From contig CAZRJH010000001.1 in the NCBI GenBank assembly GCA_964600575.1, positions 223,683 to 287,682 of the forward strand: a stretch of 64,000 nt of DNA. The letters are read 5' to 3'. The notes beneath the pieces were generated by a model. It had not been told where the DNA came from, searched no databases, and saw only the letters and a list, made by a program, of their open reading frames with translations. Within the stretch, counting starts at the first letter, position 1. Every line of letters starts with the position of its first letter. Below are positions 49,107 through 57,186 of the stretch, piece by piece. The translations under genes were made by a program, and so were the position numbers. The stretch comes from an uncultured Gammaproteobacteria bacterium. Lineage in GTDB: Bacteria > Patescibacteriota > Microgenomatia > UBA8517.

Positions 49107-50969
49107 ATGAAATCGGAAATTTCTTCCGTTCACGAAAACCCTGATCAAAATTTGAATTTTGAGGACTATGTAAGAAAAACCCCCTTAGTACTAAAGGCGT
49201 TCCAGATTGGATCCCGTGCTCACGAAGGTCAGTTTAGAAAAGAAGGGGCTCCTTATTTTACTCACTGCATAGAGGTCGCAAAAATAATATATGAAGAGTG
49301 GGGGATCAAAAACTCGCCGGAAAAAGTTGCAGCCGCCCTGCTACACGACACTGTTGAAGACACAGAACTTACGATTGACCATATAGAAGCTGAGTTTGGC
49401 GCAGAAGTTGCATACCTCGTAGAAGGGGTCTCCAAATTCAGGTCCGACAAATCCCTTAACGGAAAATCCGCAGATAAAGAAACAGTTAGAAAAATTTTTG
49501 ACAAAACGCTTATTAATCCTTGGGTTGCAGTCTTAAAACTAGCCGACAGACTCCACAACATGAGAACACTTAACTTTATGCCTCCGGAAAAGCGTGTTGC
49601 CAAAGCGGCGGAAACATTGGGTTACGCAAAACTTGCAGAATCGCTTGGCATGTGGAAAGTTATGATCGAGCTCGAAGACCTCTCGCTAAAGTTTGCTAAT
49701 CCGCAAGAATACGAAAAGTTTTCCAAAATACTGTCATCCGATCCGCGTACTAACGAACTTTTTGTCGGCTATATGGTATCCAAACTTGACTCGATTGTAA
49801 GATCGTTGGGAATCGCAGCCGTAGTGGAAACCCAAGTAAACGGAGTTGCTAGGCTTAGACATAAAATGATCAGGGAGCATAGATTTTCCAAAATTAACGA
49901 TGCTATTAGTTTTAGAATAATAACAGACGACAGCCAATCTATACAAAACGCGGAAAATGAAAGCTTGGTAATACTTGGTGCTTTGTGGGCAAACTTTGGA
50001 GATATGGAAGATTCTTCCAGATTTGATAACTTTTTATATAAACCCAGGGATAACGGTTACAGCGCAATCCAACTCACACTCGACTATCCTTTTTCCTCTG
50101 GAAAGCGGTCTGTAGAAATTGCTGTTTCGACATCGAGTAGGGAAGAGCTGAATAACCATGGGGTATTAAGCTTAATCCGTAATTTTAATACCGATATTAG
50201 CGCCTACGCATTAAAACTTATATTTACTCCAACAGGAGAGGTAAAATTTCTAAGACCAGAGGCAACAGGATTGGATTTTGCCTACTCAATAGAAAAACAC
50301 ATGGGAGCCCAAGCTACTGGAATATTTATAGACGGCACCGAATTTCCAATATCCACGATAATCCCTAACGCATCGACTGTAGAAATAATTGTAGGGCCAC
50401 CAAGGGCGGTTCCAGACCCCGAAGCGGTTAATTATGTACTTCCGCCAGCCCGAAAAATAATAGAGGATCAAAAATCAGAGTTCGAGGATCAAAAAACAAT
50501 AGCAAAAGGAAAAGATATGATTAAGGAGGTTTTAGCAAAACGAGGCCTTTTTGACCTGTTCGACTTAATCAGGTTTCCAAAACACTCAGATAAAGTTACT
50601 AGGATGCTTAGATATTTGGGTGCCAAAAGATATGTCAGTAATCTTTATAGAATGATCGGGCTCGGGCAACTTGGAGTGGAAGATTTGGATAAAGCTATGG
50701 ATGAATTTCATCTAACAAAAGAGGAGTTAAAACTTAATTCTATACTTTTAGAAGGGGAGGATGTAAAAGATTTACTGGGTTTTATAGGAAAGGTGGTTGG
50801 TAGGTACGGCGGCAATATAAAACCAATGATAAATGAACCGTTCGAACAAAACGGAAGGGATTTGTTTAAAGCGACACTAATTGTAGAAGGCCTTCCTGGA
50901 ACAAAAACTAAAAATCTAAGGCAAGCTTTTCTAAAAAACAACGCAATTAAAAAAGTAACTATAGTCTAG
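49107..50969 (+). CDS. Bifunctional (p)ppGpp synthetase/hydrolase RelA/SpoT homolog
   Basis: HD domain (HCIEVA...AALLHDTVEDT), synthetase region (NGYSAIQLTL ~ GY.SLH), TGS/ACT-like C-terminus; 620 aa. Confidence 0.75.
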   Translation: MKSEISSVHENPDQNLNFEDYVRKTPLVLKAFQIGSRAHEGQFRKEGAPYFTHCIEVAKIIYEEWGIKNSPEKVAAALLHDTVEDTELTIDHIEAEFGAEVAYLVEGVSKFRSDKSLNGKSADKETVRKIFDKTLINPWVAVLKLADRLHNMRTLNFMPPEKRVAKAAETLGYAKLAESLGMWKVMIELEDLSLKFANPQEYEKFSKILSSDPRTNELFVGYMVSKLDSIVRSLGIAAVVETQVNGVARLRHKMIREHRFSKINDAISFRIITDDSQSIQNAENESLVILGALWANFGDMEDSSRFDNFLYKPRDNGYSAIQLTLDYPFSSGKRSVEIAVSTSSREELNNHGVLSLIRNFNTDISAYALKLIFTPTGEVKFLRPEATGLDFAYSIEKHMGAQATGIFIDGTEFPISTIIPNASTVEIIVGPPRAVPDPEAVNYVLPPARKIIEDQKSEFEDQKTIAKGKDMIKEVLAKRGLFDLFDLIRFPKHSDKVTRMLRYLGAKRYVSNLYRMIGLGQLGVEDLDKAMDEFHLTKEELKLNSILLEGEDVKDLLGFIGKVVGRYGGNIKPMINEPFEQNGRDLFKATLIVEGLPGTKTKNLRQAFLKNNAIKKVTIV

Positions 50970-51475
50970 TAATTGCGAAGGTAAATTGTATTTGTTGTCG
51001 AAAAAGAAGATGTAGCACCTGTTACAGTACTTTTATCCTCGGCGGTTACTATAACGCTCACAGACGAGGGATTATTGGAGGTCCCAGGGGTACAAGAAAA
51101 AGAACAGGCTGTTAGCTTAATTGTGTCATTGGTGAGCCTCCCGGAACCAGATGCGATATATCCGTCAGCACCGGCAATGTTCACACACGAAAATGTAGTT
51201 GTCTTCCCTGTAGAATCGCTATAGGAAAATATGTCAGGATCGCTAAGCGGGCATGCGGTAATAGAATCTGCATTTCTAATCTGACGTTCTATAACTGTCA
51301 TGGCAAAATCAACATTCTCCCTAACTTTCACCAAAGACTCAGTCTTTTTTGATCCTTGTATAGTCAAAAGTACGGACCTTGTTACAACAACTCCTAGTAT
51401 AGAAAAAATAGTAATAACGACCAGGATTTCCAAAAGCGACAAACCGGACTGTTTATTTTTCATCTTTGCCTCCAA
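50966..51475 (-). CDS. Prepilin-type N-terminal domain protein (minor pilin/pseudopilin)
   Basis: QSGLSLLEILVVITIFSILGVVV class III signal-like segment. Confidence 0.55.
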   Translation of the reverse strand: MEAKMKNKQSGLSLLEILVVITIFSILGVVVTRSVLLTIQGSKKTESLVKVRENVDFAMTVIERQIRNADSITACPLSDPDIFSYSDSTGKTTTFSCVNIAGADGYIASGSGRLTNDTIKLTACSFSCTPGTSNNPSSVSVIVTAEDKSTVTGATSSFSTTNTIYLRNY

Positions 51476-51900
51476 TCAGTATAATTCGTAGAGTTGACTA
51501 TTTCATGCCAACCTTGAGAGTCATTCCATTTTATAGTGACAGTTGCGGTTACAACAGTTTTTCCGGAAACCACTCCCAAAGAAAAGTCCAACTGTCGTAC
51601 AAACTGCGTGCCTACTACATAGTTAGTATCAGCACATGCACCGCTAATACTCCAAGAAAGAGACATCAAACAGTACGAAGGTGTTTGCGCATTTGATAAA
51701 AACAAAGATATATCTTTGTCTCTTTCAGATCTCAGCCATTCCATTGTTTGTTGCGACAACAACGATCCTTGCGTACCGTTTTTTGAAAAAACCGCGTTTC
51801 TAATGGAATTGGTAACCATAGAAACCAAAGCAATTACAATTAACGCACTAATTGCTAACGCTATAATCACTTCGAACAAAGACTGGCCTTTTTGCATCAT
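51460..51900 (-). CDS. Prepilin-type N-terminal domain protein (minor pilin)
   Basis: MMQKGQSLFEVIIALAISALIVIALV. Confidence 0.55.
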   Translation of the reverse strand: MMQKGQSLFEVIIALAISALIVIALVSMVTNSIRNAVFSKNGTQGSLLSQQTMEWLRSERDKDISLFLSNAQTPSYCLMSLSWSISGACADTNYVVGTQFVRQLDFSLGVVSGKTVVTATVTIKWNDSQGWHEIVNSTNYTDWRQR

Positions 51901-52442
51901 CTAACTTCTCCTCCAGAGGTTACATAAACAGAAAAAGTCGCATTTGTACCCGTTTGTGTTGCTCTAATTTCTACAGTCTGACCGGACTCTATATTATTTC
52001 CCTCTCCCAAAACTTTAAAAGTAATGGGGTTAACAGAAGGTATAGTCAAAGTTATACCTTCCGGCAAAGTAACGCTTTTAGTGACAACTTCTGTTTGTAC
52101 TCCGACTTTGCTACATTTTGCAAAAACATCGTACTGATCAGACGAAACCACTCTAAATCCGTAGTGATCTAGAACGTATGTATTGTCACAAGCACTTACT
52201 TGCGGTTTAATTCCGCTTAGTGCGTTGGTCTGTGTAAGTCTGACATCTCCCTGGACTTGTTTAGAAAAACTAGACAAAGCTTGTCTTCTTGTAAAATCAC
52301 GATAACTAACAAATCCGTAGCCAAATAGTGTACTAACAATGGTTATACCAACCAAAAGTTCAATGAGAGTGAACGCACGTTCACGAACAGAAGTAGGATT
52401 CATGAGTCTAAAGCCGATATTATTGCGTTGTTTGTTAATCAT
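51897..52442 (-). CDS. Type IV pilin-like protein
   Basis: ...NIGFRLMNPTSVRERAFTLIELLVGITIV: G/A-FTLIEL cleavage motif preceded by an extended leader. Confidence 0.6.
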   Translation of the reverse strand: MINKQRNNIGFRLMNPTSVRERAFTLIELLVGITIVSTLFGYGFVSYRDFTRRQALSSFSKQVQGDVRLTQTNALSGIKPQVSACDNTYVLDHYGFRVVSSDQYDVFAKCSKVGVQTEVVTKSVTLPEGITLTIPSVNPITFKVLGEGNNIESGQTVEIRATQTGTNATFSVYVTSGGEVR

Positions 52443-52945
52443 GGATTAACTACTTTGTAGTTGCAAGAAGCCCCCCCGCAAGAGGAAATTCCGCCGCAGC
52501 TTACAGTGGAACCGCTTGACTGCTCCAAAGCGGCACAAATTTCATAGGCGGCACCCGACGAATCATAAACATAGTAATTATTGGGGGATATGGGGTCTGA
52601 AGGAACTTGATTGATGTAAGTATTAGTAGAGGAACAAGAAGTAGTGCTATCGTCACCCGTTAGGGAACTTCCAAAAACCGAGGATGCGTTGCCCGAACCG
52701 GATGGATAAACATCACAATCTGCTCTGTATATTTCTATCCCGCTTCTAATCTGTTCTAAATCTGTTTTCCGTTTTGCGTCACGAGAAGATTCACGGGCAC
52801 CCTGTAAACCAAAAATCGAAAGACCAACTAAGATTCCGATTATAGAGATAACCACCAAAAGCTCAATGAGAGTAAAACCGGAGGTTTTGCTCACAGAAGT
52901 TTGATTCATGAGTTTAAGGCCATGCGATTCGCGATTATTTATCAT
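52439..52945 (-). CDS. Type IV pilin paralog (extended leader)
   Basis: MINNRESHGLKLMNQTSVSKTSGFTLIELLVVISIIGIL...RDAKRKTDLEQI. The ATG overlaps the upstream TAA (TAATG) when the start is placed at 52945; the longer ORF-track start (53017) overlaps the upstream gene. Confidence 0.65.
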   Translation of the reverse strand: MINNRESHGLKLMNQTSVSKTSGFTLIELLVVISIIGILVGLSIFGLQGARESSRDAKRKTDLEQIRSGIEIYRADCDVYPSGSGNASSVFGSSLTGDDSTTSCSSTNTYINQVPSDPISPNNYYVYDSSGAAYEICAALEQSSGSTVSCGGISSCGGASCNYKVVNP

Positions 52946-53460
52946 TATAGTGGGCAATTTCCGGCGGCAATTGTAAGACTTCCTTGCAACACAGTTCCCG
53001 ACTTGCCGTTTGAACACAAAAGGAAATATCCGGTAACATTTTCCAACTTAGCCCACAAAACATAACTTGTGGAGGTTGCGGCACCGGTAGAGGCAGCCCC
53101 ATCCGACTGATATTTATATACATAAGTATTGTCATTCACATTTTTTGCATCTTCGGGGCAGGTGGTCATACCAATATCTGCGCAAAGGGTTGTGGATGCG
53201 GTTGCACCGGACCCGTCTGGTCGAGAGGGGAAAAGACTCCCGTTTTGATTGGCAAACGATTCAACCGCAGTCTGATATTGTTTTAGGTCCGATTTTCTGG
53301 CTGTATCCCTTGCCTGCCTTTGTGAGGAAGTGAAAGAAACCATGGCCAATGCGGCCAAAATTCCAATAATTGAAATAACTACCAAAAGCTCGATGAGAGT
53401 AAAACCGAAGGTTTTGCTCACAGAAGTTTGATTCATTAATGTAAAACCTTTATTCTTCAT
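52945..53460 (-). CDS. Type IV pilin paralog (extended leader)
   Basis: MKNKGFTLMNQTSVSKTFGFTLIELLVVISIIGILAALA...RDTARKSDLKQY. Confidence 0.65.
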   Translation of the reverse strand: MKNKGFTLMNQTSVSKTFGFTLIELLVVISIIGILAALAMVSFTSSQRQARDTARKSDLKQYQTAVESFANQNGSLFPSRPDGSGATASTTLCADIGMTTCPEDAKNVNDNTYVYKYQSDGAASTGAATSTSYVLWAKLENVTGYFLLCSNGKSGTVLQGSLTIAAGNCPL

Positions 53461-53993
53461 ATTTGTATTTGGAATTGCCACTGCGTCGGGCACCAACTTG
53501 AGTCACTTGTGGTTACTCCGGTTGTATCACTTTCATTTTCCAAACAAGCCGAAAGCGTAAAAGTATCCTGACTGGCTCCTCGCTCATATTTATAAACCTG
53601 GGTATTTATTGGGTCTTCGGGAAGTTTCGGCATATAAGTGGTTGTGCCGACAGTCCAAGGATCACCCCAATTACAAAGAGTTGCACCCAAGCCTCCACAG
53701 CCCATTATTTCTCCCGCAGCCGAATTTGCGGGATATATGCTTAGATCGTTGAAGTACAAGCGCAAAGCGGTTGATAAGTTCTTTAAGTCGGATTTTCTTG
53801 CGGCGTCTCTAGCCCTACCTCTGGCTGTGTTCATATTGGCAACAACAAGCGTTGCTAAAACACCTATTATGGAAACAACTACCAAAAGTTCAATGAGGGT
53901 AAAACCGAAGGTCTTGCTCTCAGAAGTTCGATTCATGAGTGTAAAGCCAAAGGATTTGCGTTTTAAAGTTTTATTCATGGCAGATTTATTCAT
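53457..53993 (-). CDS. Type IV pilin paralog (extended leader)
   Basis: ...KRKSFGFTLMNRTSESKTFGFTLIELLVVVSIIGVLATL...RDAARKSDLKNL. Confidence 0.65.
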   Translation of the reverse strand: MNKSAMNKTLKRKSFGFTLMNRTSESKTFGFTLIELLVVVSIIGVLATLVVANMNTARGRARDAARKSDLKNLSTALRLYFNDLSIYPANSAAGEIMGCGGLGATLCNWGDPWTVGTTTYMPKLPEDPINTQVYKYERGASQDTFTLSACLENESDTTGVTTSDSSWCPTQWQFQIQI

Positions 53994-54004
53994 TGTAAAT
54001 GTTT

Positions 54005-54595
54005 TTATTCTGTTGGTGTAGTGTTTGGACTATATATTGAGAAATTACAGGTTTTTCCGCCGCCACAACTTATCGAAAGTGGGGAATTCTCACAATCCCC
54101 GCCGACACATCCAGGGTCCTCTGTGTTTTCTATAAATGCAAACAACTGATACTTTTGATTTAATGGCGGATCAACGACTCTATAGTAGTAATCAAAGCCT
54201 TCCGTCGGGTCTTTAGGAACTACTTTAAAGTAAACTGTCTTGCCGTCTGTAAAACTGCCCGCTCCCCAGGAACAGGGTGATCCGCTATTCGTACCCGGGT
54301 CGTAAGGACATGCGTCTAATATTCCAGCTGCACTGTCCGGATATTTTTGGAAGTCCGAGTAAAAAAGCTCAAGCGAGTTTGATATTTGTTTGAGGTCGGA
54401 TTTTCTTTGAGCATCCCGACCTCTTGCTTGTGAACTTCTAAAAGAAACAAGTCCGACGGTAACAAGAACCGAAAGAATCGCCATAACCACCATAAGTTCG
54501 ATGAGAGTAAAACCGAAGGTTTTGCTCACAGAAGTTGGATTCATGAGAGTGAAGCCTTTTTTAAATATCGAGTTCGGTTTAACTACTTGTTTCAT
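54005..54595 (-). CDS. Type IV pilin paralog (extended leader)
   Basis: ...FKKGFTLMNPTSVSKTFGFTLIELMVVMAILSVL...RDAQRKSDLKQI. Confidence 0.65.
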   Translation of the reverse strand: MKQVVKPNSIFKKGFTLMNPTSVSKTFGFTLIELMVVMAILSVLVTVGLVSFRSSQARGRDAQRKSDLKQISNSLELFYSDFQKYPDSAAGILDACPYDPGTNSGSPCSWGAGSFTDGKTVYFKVVPKDPTEGFDYYYRVVDPPLNQKYQLFAFIENTEDPGCVGGDCENSPLSISCGGGKTCNFSIYSPNTTPTE

Positions 54596-55173
54596 TTGGC
54601 AGATTGTTTAGACTCCTCATCACATTGTTGCAGGGTTTTGGTTAATACGCAAGCATAATGACGCCCCAAGTTGCAAACTTTAGAACCGCAATTTAAATTT
54701 TTAGATAATATTTTTTTATCGTATTCAACATCATCTTTGGACTCAAGCGAAGAAAAAAGTTGATAACGAGATCCGTCGGAAGAATAAAAATAAGTAACAC
54801 CATCTTTTGCGTGTGGGTCATTTGGTAAGATTTGGGCGTAAACCTTAGTGCTACCGGGAGTTAAATCATAGAACTTATCTTTACCCCATTCGCAGGGAAT
54901 CAAATCAACCACCAATCTTCCGTTTTTGTCTAGCGTTACTTTGTCATCGGGTCTTTTGCAAGCCAATATTTTTCCGTCTGCGGTAGATTTTGGAAACTCT
55001 CCAAAGTCTCCCACATATGTAGAAAGCGCTGTTTGAACAATGGCCATATCATCCTTACGGTTTTGGTCCCGTCCCCGCATCAAACTTTTTATAAAATTAG
55101 GAGCCGAAATACCCACGAGCACAGCAAATATAATTATTAAAGCAGTCGTTTCTTCTTTGGAAAACTTCTTCAT
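54592..55173 (-). CDS. Pilin-like protein with degenerate N-terminus (no G/FTLIE)
   Basis: TM then RGRDQNRKDDMAIVQTAL...FGEFP matches the post-helix region of neighbouring pilins, but the leader/cleavage motif (EETTALIIIFAVLV) lacks Gly-1/Glu5. Confidence 0.45.
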   Translation of the reverse strand: MKKFSKEETTALIIIFAVLVGISAPNFIKSLMRGRDQNRKDDMAIVQTALSTYVGDFGEFPKSTADGKILACKRPDDKVTLDKNGRLVVDLIPCEWGKDKFYDLTPGSTKVYAQILPNDPHAKDGVTYFYSSDGSRYQLFSSLESKDDVEYDKKILSKNLNCGSKVCNLGRHYACVLTKTLQQCDEESKQSAK

Positions 55174-55782
55174 TTATTGCCAGGGTTTACATTCCGTTTG
55201 AATACTACACTGGCCAAAACATGTTGAACTTTGGAAGTTGGGATCACACTCGGGACCAGGACGAGTTTCGTCCCAGAGAATGGGAACACAAACTCCGCTT
55301 CTACAGCCATAGAAACCGCCAGTCTGCTGAAGCTGACAGTTGGGGGCATTAGGGGATGATGTGTAATAATTAAAAGCGCTATCGGGTCCGCAATTAGCCA
55401 TAACAGCTGAGTCTGATGTCGAAACATTTGTAAAAATTCTATACCACCTGGCACAGGAACTTGAAACATCGTAGTCGTAATAATACGAAGCTTTAGTTAC
55501 AGGATCACATGGAAGTTTTTCTATGTAAGGAGAGAGTCCGTTTCCGGGGTCGCAAGCCATAAGACTGGGCGGGGGATAACAGTTGTGATCTTTTTCGTAC
55601 TCTTCTATGGATATTTTTATCCGCTCCAAATCTCCTTTGCGTTTTGCGTCGTTGGCTCTAAATATCTGAGATCTAAAGTATGTCAAAAATATAACAATCA
55701 AGACGGCAACAAGAAGTATAACCAGTATAACTTCAACCAAAGTTAAACCTTTATTTTTGCGACTTTTCGTAAGTTTACGCAT
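55174..55782 (-). CDS. Type IV pilin-like protein, Cys-rich C-terminal domain
   Basis: KNKGLTLVEVILVILLVAVLIV...RANDAKRKGDLERI; about 9 Cys in the C-terminal half. Confidence 0.6.
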   Translation of the reverse strand: MRKLTKSRKNKGLTLVEVILVILLVAVLIVIFLTYFRSQIFRANDAKRKGDLERIKISIEEYEKDHNCYPPPSLMACDPGNGLSPYIEKLPCDPVTKASYYYDYDVSSSCARWYRIFTNVSTSDSAVMANCGPDSAFNYYTSSPNAPNCQLQQTGGFYGCRSGVCVPILWDETRPGPECDPNFQSSTCFGQCSIQTECKPWQ

Positions 55783-55787
55783 ATTCG

Positions 55788-56636
55788 TTATCTAGCCACA
55801 AACAAATAATTATAAATCGGATTACCCCATATATATGTTGCCACAAGTCCGGCAATCAGAAAAGGCCCGAACGCAATTTTATCTTTAAGTTTAGAAGTTT
55901 TTAAAAGCACTAAAATAATACCAACAAAAGCTCCGGACAAAAAAGAAATAAAAAACCATATAAAAACCAGTTTGAATCCCAAAAACAATCCGCCCAAAAC
56001 TGCAAATTTGACATCGCCAAGTCCCATTCCCCGTCCGCGTGTAATCAGATTGATCAAAAGTAGAAAAAGCGCAGCAACAAAGCCCGCCAGCAATGCTTGA
56101 TATATACGAACATTATCTACAAGAATTAATTTTAAGAGGATGGCGGCAATTCCAGAAAAAACCAATGTGTCAGGAATTATTTGATGTTCCAGATCGATCA
56201 CAAATATCAAAATTAAAACAGATGCTAAAAAGAGCATAAATACAAGCGACAACGGATCGTTTACAAAGGTTGCCAAGAAATAAAAAACTAAACAAGTGGA
56301 AAGTTCTATCAAAAAATACCTGGGGGATATTGTTTTTTTACAACTTCTACATTTTCCTCCCAAAATCAAATAGGAAATCAAGGGTATATTGTCATACCAA
56401 TTAATTTGATGTTTGCAATTAGGGCAAAAACTTCTTCCTTTTACAACAGATATATCTCTAGGCAGCCTATACGAAAATGCTGCAAAAAAAGAACCAAACA
56501 TAAGTCCTAAGACAGATATGAATAATTGTAGAGGTTCCACTTTACTCCGGGATACAGACGTAGCAGAGGTTTGCTGTCCAGTTATCGCTTGCGGATGTGC
56601 ACGAGTTGGTTGTTGCCACTGTTCCGTTAGCAGCAA
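55788..56636 (-). CDS. pilD: Prepilin peptidase (A24 family) PilD
   Basis: SFCPNCKHQINWYDNIPLISYLILGGKCRSCKK zinc-finger loop plus polytopic TM with conserved Asp regions. The annotated 5' end overlaps the upstream pilin gene, so the true start is probably internal or non-ATG. Confidence 0.75.
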   Translation of the reverse strand: MLLTEQWQQPTRAHPQAITGQQTSATSVSRSKVEPLQLFISVLGLMFGSFFAAFSYRLPRDISVVKGRSFCPNCKHQINWYDNIPLISYLILGGKCRSCKKTISPRYFLIELSTCLVFYFLATFVNDPLSLVFMLFLASVLILIFVIDLEHQIIPDTLVFSGIAAILLKLILVDNVRIYQALLAGFVAALFLLLINLITRGRGMGLGDVKFAVLGGLFLGFKLVFIWFFISFLSGAFVGIILVLLKTSKLKDKIAFGPFLIAGLVATYIWGNPIYNYLFVAR

Positions 56637-57186
56637 ATCCTAAAGAGTGAACTTTTGTGGCGGTTATTGCTTTGTCGCGTGTTGATTTGGACAAAGGAAT
56701 GTAGCAGGCATATACGCTTGCGGAAGATCCGGAAGCTTTACCAACCTGGATTTGTTTGTCGGCGGTTGCTCCCGAAACCCAATCACGTCCCAAAAATTCT
56801 GTCTTGAGTTCGTCGTTAGTAATAAGTAGTCCGGCTGTGGCACAACTTGCTCCGCACAATCCTACAGCTTCGGTGCCGGCGGCCTGGAAACCAAAAGCAG
56901 CTTCGGAACTTGCGGTACAGCCTGCAGCTGCACAACCCTCCCATGGGAATTTGCTGTGAGATGCAAAATATCTTTCGATTGCCGAGATCATTTGTCCGCC
57001 GTCTGCATTAAACCTGGCGTCTCTGGCTCTATTTGCCTGTTCGATAGGATTAATAGCGGCGATAACTATCAAAGCGATTGCACCAAGAAGTCCAATAACG
57101 ATAAGAAGCTCTACTAATGTAAAACCTTGGGCAAGTGTTTTTCTCATACGATAATTAAGTATCAACTCTATAAAATATCTTGTCAA
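56542..57186 (-). CDS. Type IV pilin (PilA-like; first pilin after pilC)
   Basis: MRKTLAQGFTLVELLIVIGLLGAIALIVIAAINPIEQANRARDARFNAD; probable start at the internal MRKTLA. Confidence 0.65.
   Translation of the reverse strand: MTRYFIELILNYRMRKTLAQGFTLVELLIVIGLLGAIALIVIAAINPIEQANRARDARFNADGGQMISAIERYFASHSKFPWEGCAAAGCTASSEAAFGFQAAGTEAVGLCGASCATAGLLITNDELKTEFLGRDWVSGATADKQIQVGKASGSSASVYACYIPLSKSTRDKAITATKVHSLGFAANGTVATTNSCTSASDNWTANLCYVCIPE

Follow-up and report, generated by a model that had tools for sequence, protein, structure and literature searches.

A 42-nucleotide unit carrying a repeated cleavage motif and its antisense copy, shared among neighbouring minor-pilin leaders of a Patescibacteria type IV pilus operon

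The leaders of five consecutive minor-pilin genes (G3-G7; 51897-54595, minus strand) contain a 42-nucleotide (nt) unit that was recently copied among these neighbours. The genes belong to a type IV pilus operon in a 64,000-nt stretch of DNA (contig CAZRJH010000001.1 of assembly GCA_964600575.1, positions 223,683 to 287,682; hereafter the window). Their leaders are 19-30 amino acids (aa) long and follow the pattern native leader-GFTL-MN(P/R/Q)TS(V/E)SKT(F/S)G↓FTLIEL, where the arrow marks the predicted cleavage site. An initial annotation of the window had recognized five successive pilin genes with such extended, duplicated-motif leaders, and this much stands: the pattern GFTL-30 nt-GFTLIE, counted with up to 3 mismatches allowed, occurs four times in the window and not once in shuffled sequence. 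The first GFTL, reported for all five genes, is intact only in G3, G4, and G5, and it reads GLKL in G6 and GFRL in G7. G7 also has Ala at -1 and a unit one codon shorter.

The unit has the consensus ATG AAT CNA ACT TCT GNG AGC AAA ACC TTC GGT TTT ACT CTC and forms an in-frame insert exactly between the GFTL and IEL codons, within the class III signal. Its layout is direct-inverted-direct: the native forward GFTL codons (A1) are followed by 15 nt, an inverted copy (A', GAGAGCAAAACC, encoding E-S-K-T), 3 nt, and a second forward GFTL copy (A2), which is the copy actually followed by the hydrophobic helix. Spacing is 42 nt, as in a tandem repeat, and orthologs carry 0, 1, or 2 extra units. In G4, the hairpin of the unit is weakened by a C.A mismatch. 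The 5′ end of this gene (53967-53996, minus strand) also contains an extra 15-nt tandem duplication, ACA ATG AAT AAA TCT / GCC ATG AAT AAA ACT (MNKS-A-MNKT), and thus holds several duplication layers.

Comparison with a sister genome (locus L001), represented by a 208-kilobase contig that is syntenic with the window from gyrB to a relA-like gene, identifies the unit as an insertion. The closest homolog of G5 lies there, at 89% identity, and the first GFTL codons of G5 (GGTTTTACATTA, 53437-53448) are the same in both genomes. In G3 and G5, the stretch that separates the GFTL codons from the IEL codons differs in length between window and sister by an exact multiple of 42 nt; the long leader therefore consists of an ancestral leader, its GFTL, and the inserted unit. 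The start ATGs of window and sister genes occupy orthologous, stop-overlapping positions.

Nucleotide comparison shows that the unit has a different history from the genes that carry it. Units differ at 1-5 of 42 nt within the window and 2-8 of 42 within the sister, versus 8-12 of 42 between the two genomes, where the differences are mostly synonymous. For the mature proteins of window and sister, orthologs are 87-92% identical for G3-G6 and 68% for G7, versus 24-40% for paralogs. Units cluster by genome and mature proteins by ortholog. Among codons for identical residues in G3, G5, and G6, 0 of 38 differ synonymously within the unit versus 15 of 28 in the 14 codons that follow, whose protein conservation is just as high (Fisher p = 1.4e-7). 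The unit is closer among paralogs, its flanks show the reverse, and its edges are sharp, as in gene conversion. The initial annotation had read synonymous differences between copies as selection on the peptide rather than recent copying, a conclusion that these figures do not support; near-identical leader nucleotides through gene conversion are the very outcome that the annotation had named as speaking against it. The differences it quoted are real. Of these, CTC/TTA falls outside the copied unit, in the first GFTL; CGA/CAA changes the amino acid; and AAG/AAA is specific to G4, the oldest copy.

Leader codons -6 to -3 (GAG/GTG AGC AAA ACC, E/V-S-K-T) are the reverse complement of GGT TTT ACT CTC (GAGAGTAAAACC). 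A repeat search found inverted repeats in G3, G5, and G6 with 13-nt arms that are 85% complementary and separated by a 3-nt spacer, and four units (window G3, sister G5′ and G6′, and G4 of the distant relative L020) fold with z-scores of -3.1 to -3.9. Across nine units, 88.9% of cells in the A':A2 pairing are paired, versus 82.7% after shuffling (a value as high as that observed arose in 0 of 500 shuffles) and 32-56% when the register is slid. Compensatory pairs occur at 31:51 (AU/GC/CG) and 37:45 (AU/GC). Changes in the third base of the Thr codon (ACT/ACC/ACG) are mirrored in the leader codon that follows Glu, whose first base changes with them (AGC Ser, GGC Gly, CGG Arg); GGT TTT versus GGC TTT goes with leader ACC Thr versus GCT Ala; and in G7 leader Glu GAA pairs with Phe TTC where other units pair AAA (Lys) with TTT. 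The conserved leader peptide is therefore dictated by nucleotide complementarity to the cleavage-site codons. Inverted arms with a short spacer and coordinated changes are those of a quasipalindrome, of which template switching is the presumed source. Pairing of A1 plus ATGAA with TTCT plus A' reaches 79% of cells in the window's family and shows no covariation. A1 seems to be drifting in this family, and a conserved switch is not claimed for it.

The direct-inverted-direct layout with compensatory changes recurs in independent Patescibacteria pilin leaders. Among 144 representatives of the pilin family, clustered at 50% identity, GFT[LFIMV] occurs in 7 leaders versus 0.05 expected, an enrichment of ~100-fold. 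When 103 pilin 5′ ends from all retrieved loci were searched for a complement to the 12 GFTL nucleotides, the best match was typically 6-7/12; it reached at least 10/12 in nine genes, and eight of these have a spacer of exactly 3 nt. Two independent lineages are included among the eight, namely one L002 gene (10/12) and L013, which contains a perfect 12+3+12 palindrome (CAATGTAAACCC-CTA-GGGTTTACATTG) whose leader residues QCKP are the antisense of GFTL. Double-motif genes are more structured than single-motif genes (mean z -1.45 versus +0.16, p = 4e-6), and double motifs that are likely due to chance are unstructured. A pilin leader with four GFT(L/F) motifs, repeated every 14-16 aa, occurs in L008 (JACZRW010000038.1, minus strand, near position 34); an antisense arm of the S-E-K-S type precedes every motif, and the end of the contig truncates the gene.

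Five G5 orthologs from other Patescibacteria, P0071, P0058, P0116, P0415, and P0438 (L014 6019-6093, L029, L030, L031, and L032), make up a second, independent family. Its leader, GFT(L/M/V)IRT..R..NL(I/V)x(V/I/A)QxG↓FT(L/M)IEL, is encoded by a nested palindrome with compensatory changes in three stems. The arm versions co-vary (ATCAGGGT/ACCCTGAT, ATCAACGT/ACGTTGAT, and GTCATTGT/ACAATGAT), and so does the inner hairpin (CCTGC/GCAGG, CTTGC/GCAAG, and TTCGC/GCGAA). The version ATCAACGT/ACGTTGAT was predicted from the protein (leader Asn implying Leu TTG and Thr ACR) and then confirmed in the DNA. Two alternative structures have 92% and 88.5% of cells paired, versus 23-49% in slid registers, and five pairs have changed on both sides. 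In L029, the mature protein begins FTM instead of FTL, and the upstream pseudo-motif and antisense arm have changed along with it; in L030, the pseudo-motif reads GFTV.

Distribution of the unit among orthologs is patchy, and the unit is dispensable. In L020, whose orthologs are 47-60% identical to those of the window, it is present only in G4 (MPKKFLQGFTL-MNSTSESKTKG↓FTLIEL) and G7 (..AYTL-MNPTSERSERG↓YTLIEIL) and not in G3, G5, or G6. Alignment with other related leaders, which the initial annotation had suggested, found the unit in no paralog of L025-L028 (G5 orthologs 65-74% identical to window G5) and not in sister G3′, G4′, or G7′. A metagenome scan for the unit returned one relevant locus (L020) and four matches to unrelated open reading frames (ORFs). 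A genome-collection search with a pattern requiring Phe at -2 had no matches among species representatives, which evidently do not include the window's genome. With the pattern GFTL-30 nt-GFTLIE, 12 loci were found, several of them unstructured and probably chance matches; by our own estimate, ~10^6 pilin genes / 65,536 would give ~15 such matches. A profile search with a 44-aa leader query returned short fragments only, none with the unit. As a separate observation, the leader of the G7 ortholog L025 6021 ends ...EMNPASQG↓FTLIEIL, and MNPTS occurs in G7 of both the window and L020, which hints that the MNPTS start of the unit may derive from the native G7 leader.

The explanation favored here, with slightly better than even confidence, is a template-switch insertion that was spread by short-tract gene conversion and tolerated in a leader that is removed. 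A fold-back or template-switch replication error at conserved pilin 5′ sequence would have produced the direct-inverted-direct arrangement. Short-tract gene conversion, guided by identical 12-14-mers on both flanks, would have spread the cassette among neighbouring minor-pilin paralogs, and slippage would alter its copy number. Further template switches from one inverted arm to the other would preserve their complementarity, with synonymous GFTL changes carrying leader residues with them; template switching is known to homogenize inverted-repeat arms, in coding sequence as well (PMC5941160, PMC8604942, PMC7202029). Tolerance of the cassette would follow from its position, entirely within a cytoplasmic leader that PilD removes and whose length is free to vary. 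Translation would begin at the ancestral upstream ATG and PilD would cut only the membrane-proximal G↓FTLIEL, which would leave the mature pilin unchanged and the unit presumably without function.

Several observations weigh against this account. Between genomes whose orthologs share only ~50-60% protein identity, the unit retains ~81-86% nucleotide identity, and the A-A'-A arrangement with its compensatory changes is kept across five diverged second-family orthologs; such persistence could reflect selection on structure. The C.A mismatch is kept in eight main-family units (window G3-G6, three sister units, and L020 G4), although a synonymous change could restore pairing there; arm homogenization alone does not predict this. 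The covariation samples are small and related (n=9 in the main family and n=5 in the second), and the start and cleavage site used are predicted ones. ATG is the first codon in eight of the nine terminal units, and the two other first codons are both in the sister: GTG in the ninth terminal unit (G6′) and ATT in the one non-terminal unit. The palindrome may instead be a functional cis-acting nucleic-acid element in which A' pairs with A1 or A2, and the extended leader would then be its coding shadow. A hairpin or switch at the 5′ end of the cistron would tune translation, through coupling to the upstream gene or masking of the internal AUG, or mRNA stability, and thereby set minor-pilin stoichiometry. 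This reading, the main rival, is less likely; in its favour, the folds are significantly stable, compensatory changes occur in two independent families, the second family supports both alternative pairings, the element and its internal mismatch persist over deep divergence, and independent lineages converge on one register with a 3-nt loop centred on codon -2. However, sister orthologs and four other relatives manage without the element, and the paralogs that carry it vary by genome. Searches with Rfam covariance models were negative both across the whole window at gathering score and within 51700-55900 at E<=1, and a scan for promoters and terminators found no such signal at the units. The hairpin also lies at least 40 nt downstream of the upstream start, where an effect on initiation is unlikely, and arm co-variation is known from template switching without selection (PMC5941160, PMC8604942). 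Somewhat less probable again is the stronger proposal that Patescibacteria minor-pilin leaders encode an undescribed three-segment element whose mutually exclusive hairpins would act as a cis-regulatory switch for cistron translation or stability.

Two further alternatives concern the leader peptide. If the internal ATG (M of MNxTS) were the real start, the leader would be an ordinary one of 11 aa and the upstream GFTL an untranslated spacer, open by chance. The preference of terminal units for ATG fits this idea, and Shine-Dalgarno scoring excludes neither candidate start, as the genome is nearly free of such sites (median duplex energy -0.5 kcal/mol). However, the stop-overlapping upstream ATG is the only start available to the short-leader sister orthologs, the first GFTL of G3, G4, and G5 varies purely synonymously, and the internal AUG is inside a small predicted hairpin (GGCUUCA-CUCUCA-UGAAUCC). 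An internal start is thus improbable. The upstream ATG is ancestral and shared with short-leader orthologs, two sister units have ATT or GTG as their first codon, and internal Met codons are absent from analogous double-motif leaders of other lineages. The long leaders, translated from the upstream ATG, are therefore probably real, as the initial annotation had proposed; the overlap with the preceding stop on which it relied is present in G3, G5, and G7 (ATGA) and in G6 (TAATG), while G4 has an 11-nt gap. The internal ATG may be incidental, since ATG AAT differs from the ATC GAA after A2 by roughly one missing base, and the mature pilin is identical whichever start is used. A duplicated GFTL serving as a peptide-level signal, whether a second PilD site in a two-step maturation, a docking or pseudo-substrate element, or a secondary, lineage-specific targeting signal, is very improbable. 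It would be consistent with a translated leader, with the enrichment of pseudo-motifs in pilin leaders, and with the mostly synonymous divergence of units between genomes. However, three of five sister orthologs and four other relatives lack the insert, the first motif has degenerated to GLKL, GFRL, or AYTL, and nucleotide identity among paralogs exceeds what peptide selection yields. Leader changes (S to G, T to A, K to E, and R to I/N) follow the complementary codons rather than physicochemical conservation, and antisense complementarity explains the conserved residues. Cleavage at the first GFTL is unlikely because it is followed by polar residues and lacks both the hydrophobic tract and the Glu5 that define a class III signal (PMC4471445).

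The template-switch account draws on known components (class III signals, conversion between pilin genes, and inverted-repeat arm homogenization), while a literature search turned up no earlier account of a repeated cleavage motif with an antisense copy in pilin leaders. Class III long-leader pilins (type IVb, Flp, and Streptococcus sanguinis) resemble G3-G7 in having a hydrophilic, Gly-ended leader, a hydrophobic helix with Glu5, and a dedicated A24 peptidase on the cytoplasmic side. Leaders of about 20-30 aa, a length that the initial annotation had set against the 6-7 aa of type IVa pilins, are nothing exceptional in this family, which ranges over 4-43 aa (median 11); the literature gives 6-26 aa, and class III leaders of up to 18-26 aa are documented (PMC4471445). 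G3-G7 differ in that the extra length is a cleavage-motif repeat plus antisense copy whose presence and copy number vary between orthologs. Assignment to the type IVb pilins was rejected, since the length comes from a 42-nt insert absent in orthologs and since G3-G7 are type IVa/GspG-like, with a T2SSG match, Phe+1, and mature proteins of 145-168 aa, versus type IVb prepilins of 180-200 aa.

The Neisseria pilE/pilS system shares with this operon non-reciprocal transfer among pilin copies that have conserved 5′ segments in common, and concerted evolution within a genome. Here, however, the converted tract is ~42 nt in a discarded leader and not an exposed variable domain, and no antigenic change results. 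An antigenic-variation cassette array of the pilE/pilS or shufflon kind was rejected because all copies are full, expressed-looking ORFs with signal peptides and have conserved, syntenic orthologs. A MITE-like (miniature inverted-repeat transposable element-like) mobile element with a target-site duplication was rejected as well, as the insert measures just 30 nt and its inverted repeat joins it to the flanking "duplication" instead of joining its two termini to each other. Quasipalindrome template switching in Escherichia coli and yeast (PMC7202029, PMC5941160, PMC8604942) involves short arms with a spacer of a few nucleotides that are kept complementary by multi-nucleotide changes and, inside coding DNA, causes clustered amino-acid replacements, as here. 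In pilin leaders, by contrast, one arm is pinned by protein selection on the GFTL codons and the leader arm is its slave, and the pair is part of a direct-inverted-direct triplet that recurs at one gene position in many lineages. Attenuators and coupling hairpins have a similar three-segment design, in which the middle segment can pair with either neighbour, and they too are placed at cistron 5′ ends within tightly coupled operons. Unlike attenuators, the present hairpins have no terminator and no separate regulatory leader ORF, lie inside coding sequence downstream of the start, and are dispensable between close relatives.

A striking "conserved" peptide motif can thus emerge from events in the DNA itself, such as antisense complementarity, template switching, and gene conversion, rather than evidence for a new pilin maturation pathway, which cautions against equating peptide conservation with function. 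The pilin leader is a natural case in which a protein-selected arm dictates the amino acids of a weakly constrained neighbouring peptide: the synonymous choice of Gly-Phe-Thr-Leu codons sets whether the leader reads ESKT, EGKA, QCKP, or IRV/INV/VIV. Pseudo-motifs are present in ~5% of the pilin family and could mislead cleavage-site predictors and start calls in Candidate Phyla Radiation genomes. The unit is also a candidate coding-embedded RNA structure; if the hairpins were functional, they would constitute a new coding-embedded regulator of type IV pilus subunit stoichiometry in pilus-dependent organisms.

The operon runs on the minus strand in the order ATPases, platform protein, probable major pilin, PilD, and nine pilin-like genes, G1-G9 (Table 1). 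The initial annotation had counted an array of 5-7 paralogs, which is too few, and had given the range 51897-55782, which covers G3-G7 but also takes in G1 and G2, neither of which has an extended leader. All five of G3-G7 exceed the Pfam N_methyl (PF07963) cut-off. G3-G6 carry the class III signal of a hydrophilic leader, Gly-1, a hydrophobic stretch, and Glu+5 (...G↓FTLIEL(L/M)VV), and G7 carries it with Ala-1. Pilus machinery is represented by the A24 peptidase PilD in the window and by sister-locus upstream genes that match Pfam T2SSE and T2SSF, whose window orthologs are 92-93% identical. PilD is syntenic in L001, L014, L016, L018, and L025-L028. The nine-gene array and its order are kept in all compared loci (eight other distinct loci); the paralogs are therefore old, distinct minor pilins and not a diversifying cassette array. 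The antigenic diversification suggested by the initial annotation finds no support either, as each paralog has a conserved ortholog in other genomes.

Table 1. Genes and repeat units of the pilin locus, with the corresponding leaders of the sister genome; an arrow marks the predicted cleavage site.
Feature	Coordinates	Strand	Description
Probable major pilin	56542-57147	-	MRKTLAQG↓FTLVEL; from ATG at 57147; 94% identical to sister ortholog
PilD prepilin peptidase	55788-56636 (as listed)	-	Pfam A24_N_bact 5e-31, Peptidase_A24 1e-15
G1 prepilin	55174-55782	-	Ordinary 12-aa leader MRKLTKSRKNKG↓LTLVEV; Cys-rich C-terminus; no extended leader
G2 GspG-like paralog	54592-55173	-	No Pfam match; no G/FTLxE motif; outside the repeat phenomenon
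G3 prepilin (GspG-like minor pilin)	54005-54595	-	28-aa leader MKQVVKPNSIFKKGFTLMNPTSVSKTFG↓FTLIELMVV
G3 42-nt unit	54503-54544	-	ATGAATCCAACTTCTGTGAGCAAAACCTTCGGTTTTACTCTC (MNPTSVSKTFGFTL); first GFTL codons 54545-54556
G3 hairpin	54503-54529	-	GTGAGCAAAACC-TTC-GGTTTTACTCTC; inverted-repeat search; fold z-score -3.4
G4 prepilin	53457-53993	-	30-aa leader MNKSAMNKTLKRKSFGFTLMNRTSESKTFG↓FTLIEL
G4 42-nt unit	53895-53936	-	MNRTSESKTFGFTL; most diverged copy, 4-5/42 nt from others
G4 native leader and first GFTL	53937-53978	-	MNKTLKRKSFGFTL; orthologous to sister MKINKKIFGFTL; in 42-nt tandem register with the unit, 71% identity
G5 prepilin	52945-53460	-	19-aa leader MKNKGFTLMNQTSVSKTFG↓FTLIEL
G5 42-nt unit	53395-53436	-	Hairpin 53395-53421
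G6 prepilin	52439-52945	-	23-aa leader MINNRESHGLKLMNQTSVSKTSG↓FTLIEL
G6 42-nt unit	52868-52909	-	Degenerate first motif GLKL 52910-52921; hairpin 52868-52894
G7 prepilin	51897-52442	-	23-aa leader MINKQRNNIGFRLMNPTSVRERA↓FTLIEL; Ala at -1
G7 39-nt variant unit	52365-52403	-	MNPTSVRERAFTL; one codon shorter; degenerate GFRL 52404-52415
G7 own hairpin	52369-52384	-	GTGAAC-GTGC-GTTCAC
G8 minor pilin	51460-51900	-	Ordinary short leader
G9 minor pilin	50966-51463 (from ATG)	-	Ordinary short leader
Sister G3′			MKIRLKG↓FTLIELMVV (MKIRLKGFTLIEL); 0 units; starts at stop-overlapping ATG matching window G3
Sister G4′			MKINKKIFG↓FTLIEL; 0 units
Sister G5′			MKKNGFTL-INPTSESKTKGFTL-MNPTSEGKAKGFTL-IEL; 2 units
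Sister G6′			...NSGFTL-VNPNSEGKAKGFTL-IEL; 1 unit
Sister G7′			MIKHNERKNYETKSFG↓FTLIEL; 0 units

G2 has an N-terminal hydrophobic helix (MKKFSKEETTALIIIFAVLVG...) without Gly-1 and without Glu5. The initial annotation had described it as having lost the motif, but its orthologs at the matching operon position (72% identity in the sister and 53% in L020) make it an old conserved group rather than a recent loss, and G2 is thus a non-canonical pilin-like component that may remain uncleaved. The Ala at -1 of G7, in place of the near-invariant Gly, is encoded by GCG (52374-52376, minus strand), versus Gly in the sister, and Ala-1 also occurs in several homologs elsewhere. The sister ortholog of G7 has a weak GspH Pfam match.

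The listed TTG start of PilD overlaps the upstream major pilin gene by 95 nt, and its true start is therefore probably internal to the listed ORF. Identity between window and sister is ~65% for PilD (sister PilD at L001 7020-7772) and 64-67% for G7-G9, versus 92-94% for PilB, PilT, PilC, and the major pilin. In the upstream regions of 36 long ORFs, Shine-Dalgarno sequences are almost absent and the starts follow A/T-rich stretches; exceptions with strong GGAGG-like sites include G8 (51900) and G9 (51463), which close the pilin array.

Named homologs come from Woesebacteria and other Patescibacteria. The sister contig, CAZRGC010000004.1 (L001/L009), is titled "uncultured Gammaproteobacteria bacterium," yet its gene content and homologs are Patescibacteria-like. 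The same discrepancy between title and content may apply to L010, L012, and L013, and record titles in this assembly series look unreliable.

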